Origin: Escherichia coli
GTDB taxonomy: Bacteria; Pseudomonadota; Gammaproteobacteria; Enterobacterales; Enterobacteriaceae
Direction: 5' to 3' (one strand)
DNA length: 64,000 bases
Assembly: GCF_030013595.1 (NCBI RefSeq)
Contig: NZ_CP122768.1
This document shows, piece after piece, positions 1-39,680 of the stretch (position 1 is the stretch's first letter; each line of letters starts with the position of its first letter). The position numbers and the translations under genes were made by a program. The notes below the pieces were generated by a model. It ran no database searches and was not told the DNA's origin. It saw only the letters and a list, made by a program, of their open reading frames with translations.

Positions 1-5435
<5,435 letters not shown>

Positions 5436-7903: not shown

Positions 7904-7919
7904 CCCCCAGAAACATCAA

Positions 7920-7947
7920 CGGCTCCTGAATCAGGAGCCGTCTTATT
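7920..7947. terminator. Hairpin between convergent ytfL and ytfK (possible bidirectional terminator)
   Basis: cggctcctgaatcaggagccg perfect stem-loop followed by a T-containing tract on both strands. Confidence 0.5.
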
Positions 7948-7964
7948 ACTGCATAGCACTTTGG

Positions 7965-8171
7965 TTAAGCCATCTCTGTTTGCAGACGCATAACCTGACG
8001 GTTAACTTCGGACATCACTGACAAATGCAGCTTATCCTTCACTTTTGGGATAAGAATCTTACCCTTATCAAATTCAAAAGCGCCAACGTCCTTGATGTAT
8101 AACCGTCCACGGAACAGGATCTTTACGTACTTCGCCACCTGAAGTGGGTTGTACCGTTGGAAAATTTTCAT
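7965..8171 (-). CDS. ytfK: Small protein YtfK (68 aa from MKIFQRYN)
   Basis: ORF 7965-8237 contains [68 protein letters not shown]. Confidence 0.85.
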
Positions 8172-8495
8172 TGTTATCTCCTGCTGAGTATTACGCCTGT
8201 GCGGTGCCACAATCGGCCCAACTATTATGAGGCGCAAATTTTAATGCTTAGTGACTATAGACTATCCGGGCAATGTTTCCACCGCGTATAACTTTTTTTA
8301 CCTAAAGGTTACAATTATTCAGAATTATCTTTTTACCGAAGCGCGGTCTTCAGTATAAGCATTCATTTTTCATATGATTTGTGCGCTTGACCGCAAACTG
8401 GCATCACACTTGCGGGAAATTCGATAAATAGCACATATGATTAAAACTCAGACCCAAGTGGTCGGATCACCTGCATATCATAAGAAGGAAACACC

Positions 8496-8867
8496 ATGAC
8501 CCTACGCAAGATTCTGGCACTCACCTGCCTGCTGTTGCCGATGATGGCTTCCGCACATCAGTTCGAAACCGGTCAGCGAGTGCCGCCGATTGGCATTACC
8601 GATCGGGGCGAGTTGGTGCTTGATAAAGATCAGTTTAGCTACAAAACCTGGAACAGCGCGCAGTTAGTGGGAAAAGTGCGGGTACTGCAACATATTGCTG
8701 GTCGCACCTCTGCAAAAGAGAAAAACGCGACGCTGATTGAAGCGATTAAATCAGCGAAGTTACCGCACGATCGTTACCAGACCACCACCATTGTTAACAC
8801 CGACGACGCGATTCCGGGTTCAGGGATGTTTGTGCGCAGCAGTCTGGAGAGTAATAAAAAGCGGTAA
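8496..8867 (+). pseudogene. ytfJ: ytfJ, truncated: reading frame runs into the IS1 terminal repeat and stops (123 codons versus an expected ~184)
   Basis: MTLRKILALTCLLLPMMASAHQFETGQRVPPIG...SSLESNKK then R-stop, where the final codons (cgg taa) come from the IS1 end ggtaatgactcc; expected C-terminal third absent. Confidence 0.8.
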
Positions 8868-8877
8868 TGACTCCAAC

Positions 8878-9381
8878 TTACTGATAGTGTTTTATGTTCA
8901 GATAATGCCCGATGACCTTGTCATGCAGCTCCACCGATTTTGAGAACGACAGTGACTTCCGTCCCAGCCTTGCCAGATGTTGTCTCAGATTCAGGTTATG
9001 CCGCTCAATGCGCTGAGTATAACGCTTGCTGATAACGTGCAGCTTTCCCTTCAGGCGTGATTCATACAGCGGCCAGCCATCCGTCATCCATACCACGACC
9101 TCAAAGGCCGACAGCAGGCTCAGAAGACGCTCCAGTGTGGCCAGAGTGCGTTCACCGAAGACGTGCGCCACAACCGTCCTCCGCATCCTGTCATACGCGT
9201 AAAACAGCCAGCGCTGACGTGATTTAGCACCGACGTAGCCCCACTGTTCGTCCATTTCAGCGCAGACAATCACATCACTGCCCGGTTGTATGCGCGAGGT
9301 TACCGACTGCGGCCTGAGTTTTTTAAGTGGCGGAAAATCGTGTTGAGGCCAACGCCAATAATGCGTGCACTGGCGCGACAT
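8878..9381 (-). CDS. insB: IS1 transposase InsB (167 aa reading frame; expressed as InsAB' by frameshifting)
   Basis: [64 protein letters not shown]... overlapping insA in -1 frame. Confidence 0.93.
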
Positions 9382-34833: not shown

Positions 34834-35997
34834 TTATCCAGCAATGTAATGCGGAACGAAACGTGAGGTGTCTTTGGTGATCAGCGTGTTATCTTCACGG
34901 ATCCCCATTCCGCACGCTTCATCATCGACAATCCAGCTACCGATGAGTGTGTAGCTATCGCCAAATCGCGGCAGAGGTTGAAGCGCCTGGTAGATCATCG
35001 GTTCATCGGCGTAATCACCATCAGCGTGGTCAACGACGTTATTCTGACCGTCGAAAATGGTGACGTTTCCGCCTTCGCGTGAGTAGATCGGTTTACGCAC
35101 ATAGCTTTCGCCAGCGGCAATCTGCGGTTTTTCGCCCTCAAACCAGGATGCAAGAAGGTTAGGATGACCAGGAAAGAAACGCCAAAGCAGCGGCATTAAC
35201 CCTTTGTTGCTCAAGATACTTTTCCATAACGGCTCCACCCATTGCTCGCGGCGCTTGCGCAGCAGCGGACCGTTATCGTCACGCATCATCCACTCCAGCG
35301 GATACAGCTTAAATGCACGCTGGATGACATTATCATCAAGATCGGTCAGCACACCGCCGACGCCCAAACCGAGATCTTCAATGTAGATAAACCGCGACTC
35401 CTGCCCTGCCTGCTGGGCGCAGTCCTGCAAGTACAGCACGGTACTCCTGTCTTCATCGGTGTCCTGACAGCAGCAAAAATAAAACGGTTCCCGACTGTAA
35501 AGCTCACTAAAGCGCGAAATCAGGCGTTCCTGAATAGCATTGTACTGATCGGCATCACGCGGAATAATGCCGCTGCGCCGGGCATCCTCCAGCCACAGCC
35601 ACTGGAAATAAGCCGATTCATACAACGAGGTTGGCGTATCGGCGTTGTACTCCAGCAGCTTCACCGGCGCATTGCCACACCAGGCAAAATCCATCCGGCC
35701 ATAGAGCGAAGGATCGCGTGCGCGCCAGCTTTCGGCGATCACATCCCAGTACAACGGCGGGATCGCCAGTTGCGTCAGGATCTCTTCGTCTTTAACCGCG
35801 CGATCCACCACCTCAAGGCACATCTGATGCAGTTCCGCAGTTGGTTTTTCGATCTGCTCTTCAATCTGACGCAGGGTAAAGCGGTAAGCCCGACTCTCAT
35901 CCCAATAGATTTCATTGTCGATGATATGAAAGTCGAAACCGTTGTCAGCGGCGATCTGGTCCAGATCCCACCGTACAGGAACGTTGTGTCTCAGCAT
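34834..35997 (-). CDS. yjfC: Glutathionylspermidine-synthetase-like (ATP-grasp type) protein YjfC, 387 aa from MLRHNVPVRW
   Basis: ORF 34834-36012. Confidence 0.85.
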   Translation of the reverse strand: MLRHNVPVRWDLDQIAADNGFDFHIIDNEIYWDESRAYRFTLRQIEEQIEKPTAELHQMCLEVVDRAVKDEEILTQLAIPPLYWDVIAESWRARDPSLYGRMDFAWCGNAPVKLLEYNADTPTSLYESAYFQWLWLEDARRSGIIPRDADQYNAIQERLISRFSELYSREPFYFCCCQDTDEDRSTVLYLQDCAQQAGQESRFIYIEDLGLGVGGVLTDLDDNVIQRAFKLYPLEWMMRDDNGPLLRKRREQWVEPLWKSILSNKGLMPLLWRFFPGHPNLLASWFEGEKPQIAAGESYVRKPIYSREGGNVTIFDGQNNVVDHADGDYADEPMIYQALQPLPRFGDSYTLIGSWIVDDEACGMGIREDNTLITKDTSRFVPHYIAG

Positions 35998-35999
35998 GA

Positions 36000-36638
36000 T
36001 TAGCCTCCCCAATGCCCACGGGCGCTGGAAGAACGACCATAGCCGCCGCGAGAAACGGTTGACGCTTTTTTGGTGGTAAAGCCGCCCGAAGAATAGGACT
36101 CTTTTTTGCCAGAACCGGAGCGCCAGGAGTAATCACCGGAAGTGTTGCGCCAGACGGGGCGCGAAGCAAAAGAGGAACCGCCGCTGTTATACACAAACTG
36201 CTCGTCGCGATCTTTACGAATAACCCGGCTTAACAAAAATCCAGAAACAACCGGGATCCAACTCTGTTCAACGTTGTCGTAGTAACAATTTTCATACTTA
36301 GACTGACAATTCTGCTGAGTCATATTCTTCGGAACATCGGCATAAAACGCCGCTTTGGCGTTGTTCCAGCCATGAGCACAGATATCTGAATTATTACCGT
36401 CATCAATACAATCCTGCACAGTCGAGTAAAACGTTCCGTCGCCGTCGTTATCGACATCGCCACTATCGCCACAACCTTTCAATACGAAAAAAGCGGCACC
36501 GCCCATTAGCGCCAACGTTAAGTATTTTTGTGCGTAACGATTGCGACGCGGTTCAAAAGGATTATTCGGTCTACCAATGCGACTGATCGCTCCGTGACCA
36601 ATTTTACTGTTATTTCTTGATTTGCGTTTTCTGGCCAT
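36000..36638 (-). CDS. yjfM: DUF1190 protein YjfM, 212 aa
   Basis: MARKRKSRNNSKIGHGAISRIGRPNNPFEPRRNRYAQKYLTLALMGGAAFFVLKGC...; Gly/Ser-rich C-terminus. Confidence 0.85.
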   Translation of the reverse strand: MARKRKSRNNSKIGHGAISRIGRPNNPFEPRRNRYAQKYLTLALMGGAAFFVLKGCGDSGDVDNDGDGTFYSTVQDCIDDGNNSDICAHGWNNAKAAFYADVPKNMTQQNCQSKYENCYYDNVEQSWIPVVSGFLLSRVIRKDRDEQFVYNSGGSSFASRPVWRNTSGDYSWRSGSGKKESYSSGGFTTKKASTVSRGGYGRSSSARGHWGG

Positions 36639-36647
36639 GATCGTCCA

Positions 36648-37046
36648 TTACCATGTCATACAAGCTGCGTTAAAAATACCGCCAGCCAGTGCGGCGGTTC
36701 CCATAAACATTCCTGCTGCGGTATTGTGATTAATAATTTTTTCGCTTAATGCGGGCATATAAAGTCTGACGCCAGCAAAAACGAGTAACTGAATCACCAG
36801 TGCGATCCCGCCCCAGGCGAAATAGTCTGGAATACTCACCGCATTGATTGCCGCACTGGATAAGGGGATCACGTAACCCAACAATGTACCGCTGAACGCC
36901 AGTGACGCCGCGGTATTATTGTTTTTGATTAACTGCCATTCGTTGTGCGGTGTAATTTTAGAATAGATAAACAGAAAAATAATCACCATAGCCACGCCAA
37001 TAAAAAAATAGGCACTAAAGGCAAGAAGAGAATCCAGTATATGCAT
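36648..37046 (-). CDS. yjfL: DUF350 inner-membrane protein YjfL (132 aa from MHILDSLL)
   Basis: ORF 36648-37127; four hydrophobic helices. Confidence 0.85.
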   Translation of the reverse strand: MHILDSLLAFSAYFFIGVAMVIIFLFIYSKITPHNEWQLIKNNNTAASLAFSGTLLGYVIPLSSAAINAVSIPDYFAWGGIALVIQLLVFAGVRLYMPALSEKIINHNTAAGMFMGTAALAGGIFNAACMTW

Positions 37047-37063
37047 TGTAAACGTCCTTGTAA

Positions 37064-37723
37064 TTAACCAATAATATGAAGTGATGTCAGCGGGATATCG
37101 ACACCCAACGCGCGCGAAAATAACCACTCTGGCTCGCCGAGATCGTTAAAAGATTCCTCACCATTTAGCAGCAAATATTCGTAAGTATCTTCGGTTACTT
37201 GCCGTTGGTAGCCCATGGTAAAATTATGTACTTCCCATTTGGCATGGTTTTGATTTTCTACTTTTTCCAGCATGTAGACGGGTTCGATATTTCCCGGTTC
37301 TTCGCTGTTAAAAAATCGCTGCCAGCGTTTTTCCTGCCAGTTTAAGGTCATTGCCCCCATCGCTTTGGCATTGATCGTCTCGCGCCAGTGACTCTCTTTA
37401 CTGATACCGTAGCTCTCTTCATAGACAAAGAGCTTGATATCATCAATGTCATCAATATTTTCGCCGCCGGTGGTATTGATTTGCAGAAACTCATCGCCTG
37501 AAGTGTAGTAGCGGAAAATCTGGCTACCGCCGCCCAGATCGATGTGACTGACAGCGGCTACCGTAAATTCCTCACCCGGCAGCGCAATCAGCAATTCATC
37601 TTCCAGCAAACGAAATGCTAACGTGTCGAGCGTAAAGCCACTATTGAGATGCAGACCCAGCGGACCGCGAGCGATAGCAGGCTTATTATCCTTGCCAAAG
37701 AGACGCTGGAAAAAACCAGACAT
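37064..37723 (-). CDS. yjfK: DUF2491 protein YjfK, 219 aa
   Basis: MSGFFQRLFGKDNKPAIARGPLGLHLNSGFTLDTLAFRLLEDELLIALPGEEFTVAAVSHIDLGGG... Confidence 0.85.
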   Translation of the reverse strand: MSGFFQRLFGKDNKPAIARGPLGLHLNSGFTLDTLAFRLLEDELLIALPGEEFTVAAVSHIDLGGGSQIFRYYTSGDEFLQINTTGGENIDDIDDIKLFVYEESYGISKESHWRETINAKAMGAMTLNWQEKRWQRFFNSEEPGNIEPVYMLEKVENQNHAKWEVHNFTMGYQRQVTEDTYEYLLLNGEESFNDLGEPEWLFSRALGVDIPLTSLHIIG

Positions 37724-37772
37724 ATTTTATCCTTAAAATAGTTGCCAGCCTTGCAGTGAGGCTGGCAAAAAA

Positions 37773-38471
37773 TTACTCGCCCTGTTGGCGTTGCAGTCTT
37801 GCTAATACATCCTGGGCGCTACTTTTATTGCTACCGCCTATTCCGGCTTCCGCCAGCTTTTCATCAAGATCGCGACCGTCTGCGACTTTTTCCAACTGTG
37901 CAGCAGCATCCAGGCGAGCCTGACGTTCGGCCTGACGCGTTTGCAGGCGTTTTAAGGATTCTGCCGCTGTCGAAACGCTGGAAGATGCGCCAACGGTAGA
38001 GGTCGTTACAGCCTGTTGTGCACGCTGCATGGCTTCAGTAGCTTTAACGACTTCCATTTGCTGCTCAAACTGAGCGATACGCTGCGCTGTCGCTGTAACT
38101 GCTTTTTCCACGCCATCACGAGAGACTTCCAGATTCGACAACACTTGCTCTTCAGCGGTAATGAGATTCTCAAGGCGCGCGATTTCTTCAGCAACTTCGT
38201 TAATCAACGACGGATTAACGTTCTTGCTTAACGCTTCCAGCGCACGGGCTTCCAGACTGGCTTTGCGCTCACGTAAATCTTTCAGCTTATCGTGACTTAA
38301 TTTCACCCGCGCCAGCAGATCAACGCGAGATTTTCCGGCTTTATCGAGTTCAGCTTTAGCGTCACGAATATGCTGTTCCAGCATGCGCACGCCCTGGGTT
38401 TCTTCAATGGATTCTTCCGCCTGAGAGATAAACGATTTCCCCAGCGTAAATAAACTTTTTAAAATTCCCAT
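37773..38471 (-). CDS. yjfJ: PspA/IM30 (ESCRT-III-like) family protein YjfJ, 232 aa
   Basis: MGILKSLFTLGKSFISQAEESIEETQGVRMLEQHIRDAKAELDKAGKSRVDLLARVKLSHDKL... long coiled-coil with PspA-like N-terminus. Confidence 0.88.
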   Translation of the reverse strand: MGILKSLFTLGKSFISQAEESIEETQGVRMLEQHIRDAKAELDKAGKSRVDLLARVKLSHDKLKDLRERKASLEARALEALSKNVNPSLINEVAEEIARLENLITAEEQVLSNLEVSRDGVEKAVTATAQRIAQFEQQMEVVKATEAMQRAQQAVTTSTVGASSSVSTAAESLKRLQTRQAERQARLDAAAQLEKVADGRDLDEKLAEAGIGGSNKSSAQDVLARLQRQQGE

Positions 38472-38489
38472 AAATACCCGTCCTTGTAA

Positions 38490-38891
38490 TTAGAGTGAAT
38501 ATTCTTCTGTAATTTCAGCCAGATCCAATGCGTTATCTACCAGCGAGGTTATCTCAAGCAGGATATCTTCAAGAGAAGATTTAAGCGATAACGCCCCGAA
38601 AACAATGTAATACTCTTCATGTTGCACGCTGGAGATCCCTACCGATGACAACGGCATCATCTTCTGATTTCTTAATAAGAAGGTATTAAATTCATCTGGA
38701 TTGCTGATACTACTTACCGGACAAATAAAGGTTTCGATAATCATTTGGCGGGAAGTAAATAGAATATTGATTTGCAAATCGCCATAATCATTCATTTTAA
38801 TAATTAATGCGTTCTCGCCATTTGTTACATCAATATTTTGTTCAGGTACAGTTTGCAGCGCCGTCGCCAGCGCCAACGGATTCCATGTCAT
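38490..38891 (-). CDS. yjfI: DUF2170 protein YjfI, 133 aa
   Basis: MTWNPLALATALQTVPEQNIDVTNGENALIIKMNDYGDLQINILFTSRQMIIETFICPVSSI... Confidence 0.85.
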   Translation of the reverse strand: MTWNPLALATALQTVPEQNIDVTNGENALIIKMNDYGDLQINILFTSRQMIIETFICPVSSISNPDEFNTFLLRNQKMMPLSSVGISSVQHEEYYIVFGALSLKSSLEDILLEITSLVDNALDLAEITEEYSL

Positions 38892-38959
38892 ATATTATTC
38901 CATATAAATTAAGTTTAAATATTAATAAAATGAATATTTGCAGTACGTAATTATCTTAC

Positions 38960-39680
38960 CAGCTATAGACAAATAAATATCCTCCGGCATAGCCGGAGGT
39001 TTTTCAAATGCGCCTGTAAGGCTCTGTTACCAGCCGCGCCCTAACAGGCGCATACGATCTGACATTTGCATTCAACTTCGTTACTTACGGCCCGTAAACG
39101 GGCTGCCCGGATATGGAATCGATAACTGCTCCCCCATTTTATCCTCTTCAAGCTGGTGCTTTATGTAGTCCTGTATCTTCGCCGTGTTCTTACCCACCGT
39201 ATCGACATAGTACCCTCGGCACCAGAACTCCCTGTTTCTGTATTTGAATTTCAAATCCCCAAACTGCTCGTAAAGCATCAGACTGCTTTTCCCTTTCAGA
39301 TATCCCATAAAGCCGGATACGCTCATTTTGGGTGGGATTTCCACAAGCATATGGATATGATCTGCGCAGCACTCTGCTTCCAGAATCCGTACGCTTTTCC
39401 ACTCACACAGCTTTCTCAAAATACTGCCTATCGCCCTACGCTTCTCTCCGTAAAACGCCAGTCTTCGGTATTTCGGCGCAAAAACTATGTGATATTTACA
39501 GTTCCAGCGGGTGTGCGCTAAGCTCTTTTCGTCCCCCATTGGGACCCCCTTTTGATTTCTTGTTTGACACTTGCAGTTGCCAGACCGCAAGGTGTTTTAA
39601 CAAATCAAAAGGGGTTTTAATAACTGGCTCAAAGCTGAAAGCTTTCCGGAACCCCCAGCCTAGCTGGGGGTTTTCTGTGC
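38960..39680 (-). mobile_element. IS200: IS200-type insertion sequence (single tnpA, ~0.7 kb); boundaries approximate
   Basis: tnpA reading frame with IS200-type protein sequence; hairpins near both ends (cccccagcctagctggggg at 39651-39669; cctccggcatagccggagg at ~38969-38991); lies between the rlmB terminator and the yjfI start. Confidence 0.7.
39081..39539 (-). CDS. tnpA: IS200 Y1 (HuH) transposase TnpA, 152 aa from MGDEKSLAHTRWNCKYHIVFAPKYRR
   Basis: ORF 39081-39590; HuH motif HIHMLVEIPP, conserved PKYRR and C-terminal Tyr region (KIQDYIKHQ). Confidence 0.88.
   Translation of the reverse strand: MGDEKSLAHTRWNCKYHIVFAPKYRRLAFYGEKRRAIGSILRKLCEWKSVRILEAECCADHIHMLVEIPPKMSVSGFMGYLKGKSSLMLYEQFGDLKFKYRNREFWCRGYYVDTVGKNTAKIQDYIKHQLEEDKMGEQLSIPYPGSPFTGRK

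Follow-up and report, generated by a model that had tools for sequence, protein, structure and literature searches.

The yjfIJKLMC gene cluster of Escherichia coli belongs to an operon class that is already known. Ravi et al. 2024 (mSystems; PMC11237479) reported operons in which a CesT/Tir-PspA pair is combined with a polyamine ATP-grasp gene (the 'third group' of that study), and used E. coli YjfI and the yjfJ family as examples. The cluster analysed here lies on the minus strand, from position 34834 to 38891, of a 64,000-nucleotide stretch of E. coli DNA (hereafter, the window), and it consists of six open reading frames (ORFs). The same six families occur in the class of Ravi et al. and in the window, and they are co-linear. 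One difference is that the described class includes a K+ channel, whereas the window has a spacer of 49 nucleotides (nt) with a hairpin instead.

Other known systems share only parts of the set. The bac operon of Pseudomonas aeruginosa (BacA, PA3732; BacB, PA3731) shares the dyad of a DUF2170 protein and a PspA-like protein, but its other genes differ from the K-L-M-C set (PMC10948618). The tolC-ygiB-ygiC locus has a paralogous dyad of DUF1190 and ATP-grasp genes in the same order as yjfM-yjfC. However, ygiBC adjoins tolC without a PspA, DUF2491 or DUF350 gene, and ygiB is Cpx-regulated. The two dyads are reported to be redundant in tolC mutants, as cited in a preprint (bioRxiv 10.1101/2021.12.13.472529), through which it is also reported that the loss of YgiBC and YjfMC worsens the tolC growth defect (Dhamdhere 2010). 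The classical phage shock protein (Psp) system (pspF/pspABCDE and pspG) shares only its effector family with the yjf cluster, namely PspA/IM30 with an N-terminal amphipathic helix. No PspB, PspC or PspF gene is adjacent to yjfJ, whose neighbours are yjfI, K, L, M and C, rlmB, and aidB. In the LiaI-LiaH system of Bacillus subtilis, a PspA-family protein is recruited by a small membrane protein of the same operon (PMC13051332). This may serve as a working analogy for a contact between YjfL and YjfJ, although YjfL (DUF350) is unrelated to LiaI and the yjf locus has no two-component system of the LiaFSR type. Lastly, YjfC shares the ATP-grasp synthetase domain with glutathionylspermidine synthetase (GspS) and trypanothione synthetase (2io7 and 2vob; E 1e-33 to 1e-38), while GspS is a protein of 619 residues with an amidase domain and YjfC has 387 residues and no amidase domain.

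The outer coordinates of the cluster are exact: the start codon of yjfI begins at 38891 and the stop codon of yjfC ends at 34834. The names yjfI to yjfC follow the RefSeq annotation of an E. coli strain that is 98.6% identical. Each of the six proteins matches one Pfam family only, far above the gathering score. All on the minus strand, yjfI (38490..38891) encodes a DUF2170 protein (PF09938, E 5e-44), which is a CesT/Tir-like chaperone and a putative partner of YjfJ; yjfJ (37773..38471) encodes a PspA_IM30 protein (PF04012, E 5e-58) of the PspA/IM30, or bacterial ESCRT-III, family; yjfK (37064..37723) encodes a DUF2491 protein (E 2e-71), all-beta and predicted to be cytoplasmic, and is the signature gene of the full cluster; yjfL (36648..37046) encodes a DUF350 protein (E 2e-33), a small inner-membrane protein with four hydrophobic segments; yjfM (36000..36638) encodes a DUF1190 envelope protein (E 7e-18); and yjfC (34834..35997) encodes a GSP_synth protein (PF03738, E 1e-148), an ATP-grasp acid-amine ligase of the GspS family. 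The annotated start codons are used here. Thus, yjfL starts at the ATG at 37046 (132 residues) and yjfC at the ATG at 35997, whereas the upstream GTG at 37127 and the TTG at 36012 given for these two genes by a mechanical ORF list are not used by the annotation. With these starts, the intergenic gaps are 18 nt (I-J), 49 nt (J-K), 17 nt (K-L), 9 nt (L-M) and 2 nt (M-C). An earlier inspection of the letters alone (the sequence-only reading) had described six tightly spaced genes on one strand, had named these six families, and had called the genes long annotated. It was right in all three respects. The cluster is flanked by rnr-rlmB upstream and aidB downstream, and its site between rlmB and aidB is fixed. 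A 5.1-kb stretch carrying the cluster matches 5425 of 5426 complete E. coli genomes and is covered to at least 80% in 5309 of them. The yjfIJKLMC cluster is therefore core in E. coli.

Is the gene order conserved outside E. coli? An alignment of YjfK orthologues was scanned against 100,044 species genomes, with one genome per species, and 27 loci were obtained. The six E. coli proteins were then run against these loci by tblastn, and 23 of the loci had enough DNA to be informative. The order I-J-K-L-M-C on one strand was found in 22 of the 23, which belong to Escherichia, Citrobacter, Kosakonia, Phytobacter, Buttiauxella, Atlantibacter, Enterobacter, Serratia microhaemolytica and Endozoicomonas, together with an Endozoicomonas-like record titled Salinisphaera sp. 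G21_0. The Endozoicomonas proteins are 31-50% identical to those of E. coli. The four other loci end at contig edges, and the genes that remain there fit the same order. The sole exception is Salmonella enterica subsp. diarizonae CCUG 30040T (L023, 6399-7538), which has yjfI and fragments of yjfK, yjfM and yjfC between an intact rlmB and an intact aidB; in this lineage, the cluster has apparently decayed as a unit. Three loci that were reached by another route, via distant DUF1190 proteins of 23-35% identity, carry the same gene set. One is a metagenome contig holding all six genes, one is a seven-gene version in Agarivorans (Alteromonadales), and one is a metagenome locus (L033) in which the DUF2170-PspA pair is divergent from a channel-DUF2491-DUF350-DUF1190-ligase series. 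Conservation of the gene neighbourhood had been proposed as a check on the sequence-only reading, and the genes were found to be co-conserved.

The seventh gene lies between yjfJ and yjfK. I found that about 1.07 kb separates these two genes in many relatives, a channel-sized gap being present in the Citrobacter, Buttiauxella, Atlantibacter, Serratia microhaemolytica and Enterobacter loci. In one of these relatives (L004, 3070-4140), the stretch encodes a protein of 356 residues with an Ion_trans_2 K+ channel domain. Here and in another locus (L040, 3500-4570), the channel gene overlaps both the stop codon of yjfJ and the start codon of yjfK. The channel genes of L033 and Agarivorans (L035) additionally have a Castor_Poll_mid domain. 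In E. coli, the gene is kept in 19 of 5426 genomes, where it is annotated as 'potassium channel family protein' and has start/stop overlaps with both neighbours. Thus, the channel gene is a presence/absence polymorphism inside the species. The window, like most E. coli, has no channel gene in its 49-nt J-K spacer (37724-37772). At the position of the relatives' channel gene, a terminator-like hairpin is found on the minus strand (37742..37768), with a 10-bp GC-rich stem followed by CTATTTT. Endozoicomonas elysicola (L028) has instead an opposite-strand gene for a LysE-type exporter in the J-K gap (3487-4116), and its cluster is closely preceded by a gene for a TrkH K+ transporter (567-2012). 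Since a channel gene or another gene occupies the J-K position in relatives, J-K is a natural breakpoint of the cluster, and the six-gene form of E. coli is, judging from this comparison of gene orders, a reduced variant of a conserved gammaproteobacterial seven-gene operon. By the same comparison, the ancestral form of the operon includes the K+ channel. Given its repeated loss, the mechanism cannot depend on the channel. This channel-loss polymorphism is new in this analysis, as are the linkage of DUF1190 and the ligase with its Gly-Gly end and the IS200C insertion site, both of which are described below.

The sequence-only reading had staked much on the PspA-like assignment of yjfJ, and this holds at two levels. 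Against PF04012, YjfJ scores 196.7 bits (cut-off 33.9), with residues 2-232 aligned to profile positions 1-220 of 220. A profile built from 11 YjfJ orthologues matches Vipp1/PspA chains of known structure (8qbr, 8qbw and 6zvr) at E 1e-9 over residues 1-228, while a single-sequence phmmer search of the PDB with YjfJ gave no match. YjfJ is thus a genuine yet distant member of the PspA family. Its residues 2-19 are amphipathic at the sequence level, with a hydrophobic moment of 0.45; for the corresponding residues of E. coli PspA, the value is 0.42. A homology model of YjfJ in the literature suggests an ESCRT-III-like polymer (PMC12492005).

YjfI matches its solved homologue BacA (8q8o) at E 6e-17 over residues 3-128, and scores 94 bits against the NCBIfam BacA model, the equivalog cut-off of which is 300. 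The crystal structure of BacA has been described as a CesT-like fold (PMC10948618), and the AlphaFold2 (AF2) interaction probability of P. aeruginosa BacA and BacB is reported as 0.981 (PMC13092808). Hydropathy analysis of YjfI revealed neither a signal peptide nor a hydrophobic segment. It has been suggested that YjfI is a periplasmic lipoprotein (PMC12492005), and this was rejected in view of the lack of these features and of the homology to the cytoplasmic, CesT-like BacA.

YjfK is the signature protein of the full cluster, and a search of solved structures with its sequence gave no relative. The AF2 model is confident and all-beta, with a predicted local distance difference test (pLDDT) score of 85. 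Across distant orthologues, the polar residues R71, Q81, D95, R136, R174, E182 and E189 are invariant, which is consistent with a putative binding or catalytic site. YjfK has neither a signal peptide nor a hydrophobic segment, and the proposal that it is an outer-membrane porin (PMC12492005) was rejected on this ground. In YjfL, two hydrophobic segments exceed the hydropathy threshold and two weaker ones were read from the sequence; a DUF350 protein has been described as having four transmembrane (TM) helices (PMC11237479).

YjfC itself has been solved. It corresponds to PDB entries 7uk6 and 7uk7 ('Putative acid--amine ligase YjfC', 906 bits), and its paralogue YgiC (7uk8) matches it at E 1e-128. 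Against PRK10507, the NCBIfam model of bifunctional GspS, YjfC scores 165.6 bits where the cut-off is 882, and only profile positions 487-613 are matched. With no amidase domain and a score well short of the equivalog cut-off, YjfC belongs to the GspS family but is not an orthologue of GspS. In papers that cite Pederick 2023 (PMC11762307 and PMC12568646), YjfC and YgiC are said to have peptide-spermidine ligase activity in vitro. Through another citing paper (PMC12506659), YgiC, and by the title of the study YjfC as well, is reported not to make glutathionylspermidine (Sui 2012). Thus, the earlier statement that the substrate of the ligase is unknown needs to be narrowed: the in vitro ligation and the two structures speak against it, while it still applies to the physiological substrate.

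The partner of YjfC, YjfM, consists, in this order, of a basic N-terminal extension, a signal anchor or degenerate lipobox, an acidic domain with four Cys residues, a short conserved hydrophobic motif, and a tail. The extension, which lies in the N-terminal part of yjfM (window 36472-36638), has 38 residues, is strongly basic, and in enterobacterial YjfM contains a conserved NPFE motif. The lipobox reads VLKGC, with Lys at position -2, and a few orthologues have no Cys there at all. The tail is basic and Gly/Ser-rich and ends in SRGGYG...HWGG-COOH. Most of the DUF1190 family differs from YjfM in having a canonical lipobox and a signal peptide that is short. From this difference in sequence, YjfM may be an uncleaved variant that is anchored in the membrane with its N-terminus inside.

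I analysed the DUF1190 family further, taking one representative per 50%-identity cluster and keeping the 114 that have at least 150 residues. A lipobox is present in 93 of the 114, a few have twin-arginine-like signals, and two CxnC pairs are found in 108. The penultimate residue is Gly in 110 representatives, 94 have RGG[FYW]G upstream of the C-terminus, and 92 end in Gly-Gly, whereas shuffling of the last 30 residues gives an expectation of 6.0 +/- 2.3. Among the 107 sequences that end in GG or GS, the middle domain is acidic in 105 (median net charge -6) and the tail is basic and rich in Gly, Ser and Tyr in 106 (median +7); both traits occur together in 104. A conserved hydrophobic motif of about 15 residues, with the consensus SWFMPAMAGFMLGRAL, is present in 102 of the 107. 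Considered as a second TM helix of DUF1190, this motif has a median Kyte-Doolittle value of 1.19 and seems short for a standard one. Orthologue alignments of the other proteins of the cluster revealed no such conserved C-terminus.

DUF1190 also keeps company with the ligase. In 10 of 10 contexts examined, the DUF1190 gene adjoins a GSP_synth ligase gene or sits two genes from it, often only 0-4 nt apart. The contexts include the window, Endozoicomonas, three metagenome operons, the L030 locus, two phage-like contigs (L031, 6001-7802; L032, 6001-7759) and three phages, RSL1 (L037, 1095-2622), Phosso (L039, 910-2670) and avDM4 (L038, 344-2697). In avDM4, two other genes lie between them. The DUF1190-type lipoproteins of the phages and phage-like contigs end in Gly-Gly, and a homologue of the ligase was found in 140 phage records.

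What is known about transcription concerns mainly the first four genes. They form one independently modulated set, the 'YjfJ iModulon' (PMC12492005). In heat-evolved strains, a 1-nt deletion described as lying '80 bp upstream' strongly induces yjfIJKL (PMC12492005), and when yjfIJKL is activated from a plasmid, growth at 42 °C is accelerated more than 1.21-fold (PMC11472167). A study by genomic SELEX (systematic evolution of ligands by exponential enrichment) places a constitutive promoter of the sigma-70 type, TTAATA-17-TGGAAT, in the interval from rlmB to yjfI and lists the transcription unit as nsrR-rnr-rlmB-yjfIJ (PMC3946193). This promoter is intact in the window, within the AT-rich 79-bp region upstream of yjfI (38892..38970, minus strand). 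A scan for consensus sigma-70 promoters found no convincing candidate upstream of yjfI or yjfK, and there were fewer sites than in shuffled controls. A scan of the locus against Rfam revealed no leader or small RNA for the operon, the only match being STnc490, which is derived from an IS200 element. Independent transcription of the genes had been named as a point that would tell against the sequence-only reading; the iModulon supports co-transcription, and this support is limited to yjfIJKL. A second terminator-like hairpin, with a 7-bp stem followed by ATTTTT, was noticed on the minus strand at 36678-36698, which is 30-50 nt before the stop codon of yjfL and at the boundary of yjfIJKL and yjfMC. 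The coding sequence at this place is conserved, and the hairpin that overlaps it may be incidental.

What might the cluster do? I lean, with about even confidence, towards an inner-membrane stress-protection system composed of three modules. A membrane stress module with an enzymatic partner had been proposed in the sequence-only reading, and it is supported, since the co-conservation of the genes and the PspA-like assignment of YjfJ both hold. In this system, YjfJ would bind the cytoplasmic face of the inner membrane via its N-terminal amphipathic helix and would stabilise or remodel damaged membrane. YjfI would be a dimeric, CesT-like chaperone of YjfJ, and by binding YjfJ it would govern how soluble this protein is or how it assembles. 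YjfL, as a four-helix protein of the inner membrane, and YjfK, as a soluble protein that is rich in beta structure and amphipathic over a short N-terminal stretch, would form a membrane-proximal anchor or sensor, and this pair, ancestrally with the K+ channel, would tie the I-J and M-C modules together. YjfC, as an ATP-grasp ligase in the cytoplasm, would couple spermidine to the carboxylate of a peptide, and would form an obligate pair with the envelope protein YjfM. The homologies, the synteny and the division into modules are established by this analysis, and the co-regulation of yjfIJKL, the benefit of its induction for growth at 42 °C and the structures and in vitro activity of YjfC by the literature. 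I infer all contacts between the proteins, the repair of membranes by YjfJ, what YjfK and YjfL do, and what YjfC makes in the cell.

Several facts weigh against such a system. The physical links among the three modules are conjectural, YjfK has no recognisable fold relative, and YjfJ reportedly does not assemble into large rings of the kind that is typical of PspA (PMC5333519). The cluster is interrupted between J and K in L033 and Endozoicomonas, the K+ channel, unlike the other six genes, has repeatedly been lost, the iModulon does not include yjfMC, and the I-J and M-C dyads each occur alone, in the bac operon on the one hand and in tolC-ygiBC and phages on the other. The chief competing explanation of the entire cluster is that the three modules are just neighbours (a yjfIJ stress pair, a yjfKL membrane pair and a yjfMC pair for polyamine conjugates), linked only by shared regulation or history. 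The solitary dyads (see also PMC10948618 and PMC11762307), the iModulon of four genes (PMC12492005), the older tables that join yjfIJ to nsrR-rnr-rlmB (PMC3946193), the hairpin between yjfJ and yjfK, and the divergent or interrupted layouts fit this rival. I nevertheless regard it as rather unlikely: DUF2491 is strictly linked to the others, with the same order in 22 of 23 loci from Enterobacterales to Oceanospirillales, the set is kept in Agarivorans and the two metagenome contigs reached via DUF1190, start/stop overlaps join yjfJ, the channel gene and yjfK in the seven-gene form, and the S. diarizonae cluster decayed together. The channel gene invites another explanation, in which a ligand-gated K+ channel is coupled to polyamine conjugation for cation balance or turgor, YjfJ is an accessory, and the E. 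coli cluster is a remnant. The channel gene is part of the operon in Agarivorans, in L033 and in 19 genomes of E. coli, with channel-sized gaps in relatives; a TrkH gene adjoins the Endozoicomonas cluster; and polyamine genes recur with PspA-CesT dyads (PMC11237479). However, the loss of the channel alone, reported phenotypes limited to growth in heat and the worsened tolC defect, and the absence of a polyamine transporter make this explanation improbable. It is highly improbable that the cluster is a module for anti-phage defence or abortive infection with a 'phage shock' protein at its core. Such a module would agree with a copy on a metagenome contig (P0262) that adjoins nSTAND and SIR2/TIR genes, with the L033 copy, which adjoins Csf3 and an N6-methylase/Eco57I-like gene of restriction-modification type (1-1649 and 7916-9289), and with the phages that carry the DUF1190-ligase dyad. 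On the other hand, the cluster is core in E. coli and sits at the fixed rlmB-aidB site, not in a variable island. PADLOC, run on the six proteins, gave only weak matches of the YjfJ coiled coil to JetC and LmuB (E 5e-4 to 2e-3), which amount to coiled-coil noise, and membership in a known defence system was rejected on this negative result.

A further reading concerns the ligase and its partner. YjfC and YgiC might activate the C-terminal Gly-Gly of their DUF1190 partners, YjfM and YgiB, and amidate it with spermidine or another amine. This would be a C-terminal polyamination of a protein, similar in logic to the action of RimK on ribosomal protein S6, of LysX on LysW, or of tubulin tyrosine ligase. 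The basic tail, once modified, would have its role in the envelope. I consider this reading unlikely, and its general form, in which DUF1190 and the ATP-grasp ligase (YjfC, YgiC and the phage homologues) are an unrecognised protein-tagging pair, to be a shade less likely again. In that form, spermidine or an amine related to it would be attached to the Gly-Gly, and this could take place ahead of export or on a tail facing the cytoplasm. It is known that the GspS and trypanothione synthetase family activates the Gly carboxylate of glutathione. In view of this chemistry, and of a conserved C-terminus that the other proteins of the cluster lack, the DUF1190 tail is a candidate physiological substrate. 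The constant neighbourhood of the two genes in all ten contexts and the excess of GG ends over the shuffled expectation also suggest the C-terminus of YjfM as the substrate. The acidic middle and the basic tail, found together in 104 of the 107 sequences, are compatible with a hairpin that leaves the tail in the cytoplasm, and the joining of spermidine to peptides in vitro by YjfC and YgiC, as cited in PMC11762307 and PMC12568646, agrees with the proposed reaction. In contrast, the lipobox, the twin-arginine-like signals and the CxnC pairs point to export of DUF1190 proteins while the ligase is cytoplasmic, and the roughly 15 residues of the central hydrophobic motif seem too few for a standard TM helix. 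I also modelled a fusion of YjfC, a 30-residue linker of (GGGGS)x6 and the last 30 residues of YjfM by AF2, with 18 paired orthologue rows. YjfC was mostly at pLDDT 80-98, the linker and the YjfM tail were at 23-34, and no docking was predicted. This speaks against the reading insofar as the tail was not placed, and taken by itself the model lends the substrate idea no support and does not refute it. In the searchable literature, no statement of the Gly-Gly idea was found, Pederick 2023 being represented there by the papers that cite it.

The upstream side of the cluster in the window is altered by an insertion sequence. IS200C (38971..39680, minus strand), which is annotated as such, is about 710 bp long and has terminal hairpins and a Pfam match to Y1_Tnp. 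It contains the tnpA gene (39081-39539, minus strand; Y1_Tnp) and the STnc490 RNA (39549-39672; 146 bits in Rfam). Mapping against an IS-free strain revealed that the element sits between the T9 tract of the rlmB terminator and position -79 of yjfI. The exact junction was found in 4 of 5426 complete E. coli genomes; IS200C is strain-specific and is no part of the operon. It probably blocks read-through from rnr-rlmB and leaves the proximal promoter in place, as judged from its position. In the IS-free strain, the T9 tract spans -80 to -88 relative to the ATG of yjfI. Since this coincides with '80 bp upstream', the 1-nt deletion of the heat-evolved strains most likely lies within the T9 tract. 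The insertion point of IS200C is within a base or two of the position given for that deletion.

In summary, yjfJ encodes the second PspA-type (ESCRT-III-like) protein of E. coli, and yjfIJKLMC is one of the larger sets of neighbouring core genes in E. coli still awaiting a mechanism. The operon class has been described, and the interest that is left lies in the unsolved mechanism and in a testable hypothesis on the substrate of the ligase, whose peptide-spermidine ligation is a new chemistry. The six genes travel together over gammaproteobacterial orders, a K+ channel belongs to the ancestral operon, and DUF1190, with its near-invariant Gly-Gly end, accompanies the ligase even into phage genomes; these three observations narrow the experiments to be done. 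If the Gly-Gly idea is true, a polyamine would be placed on the end of a basic envelope tail, in a bacterial and phage counterpart of RimK, LysX and tubulin tyrosine ligase, and the missing physiological substrate of the 'peptide-spermidine ligases' would be supplied.

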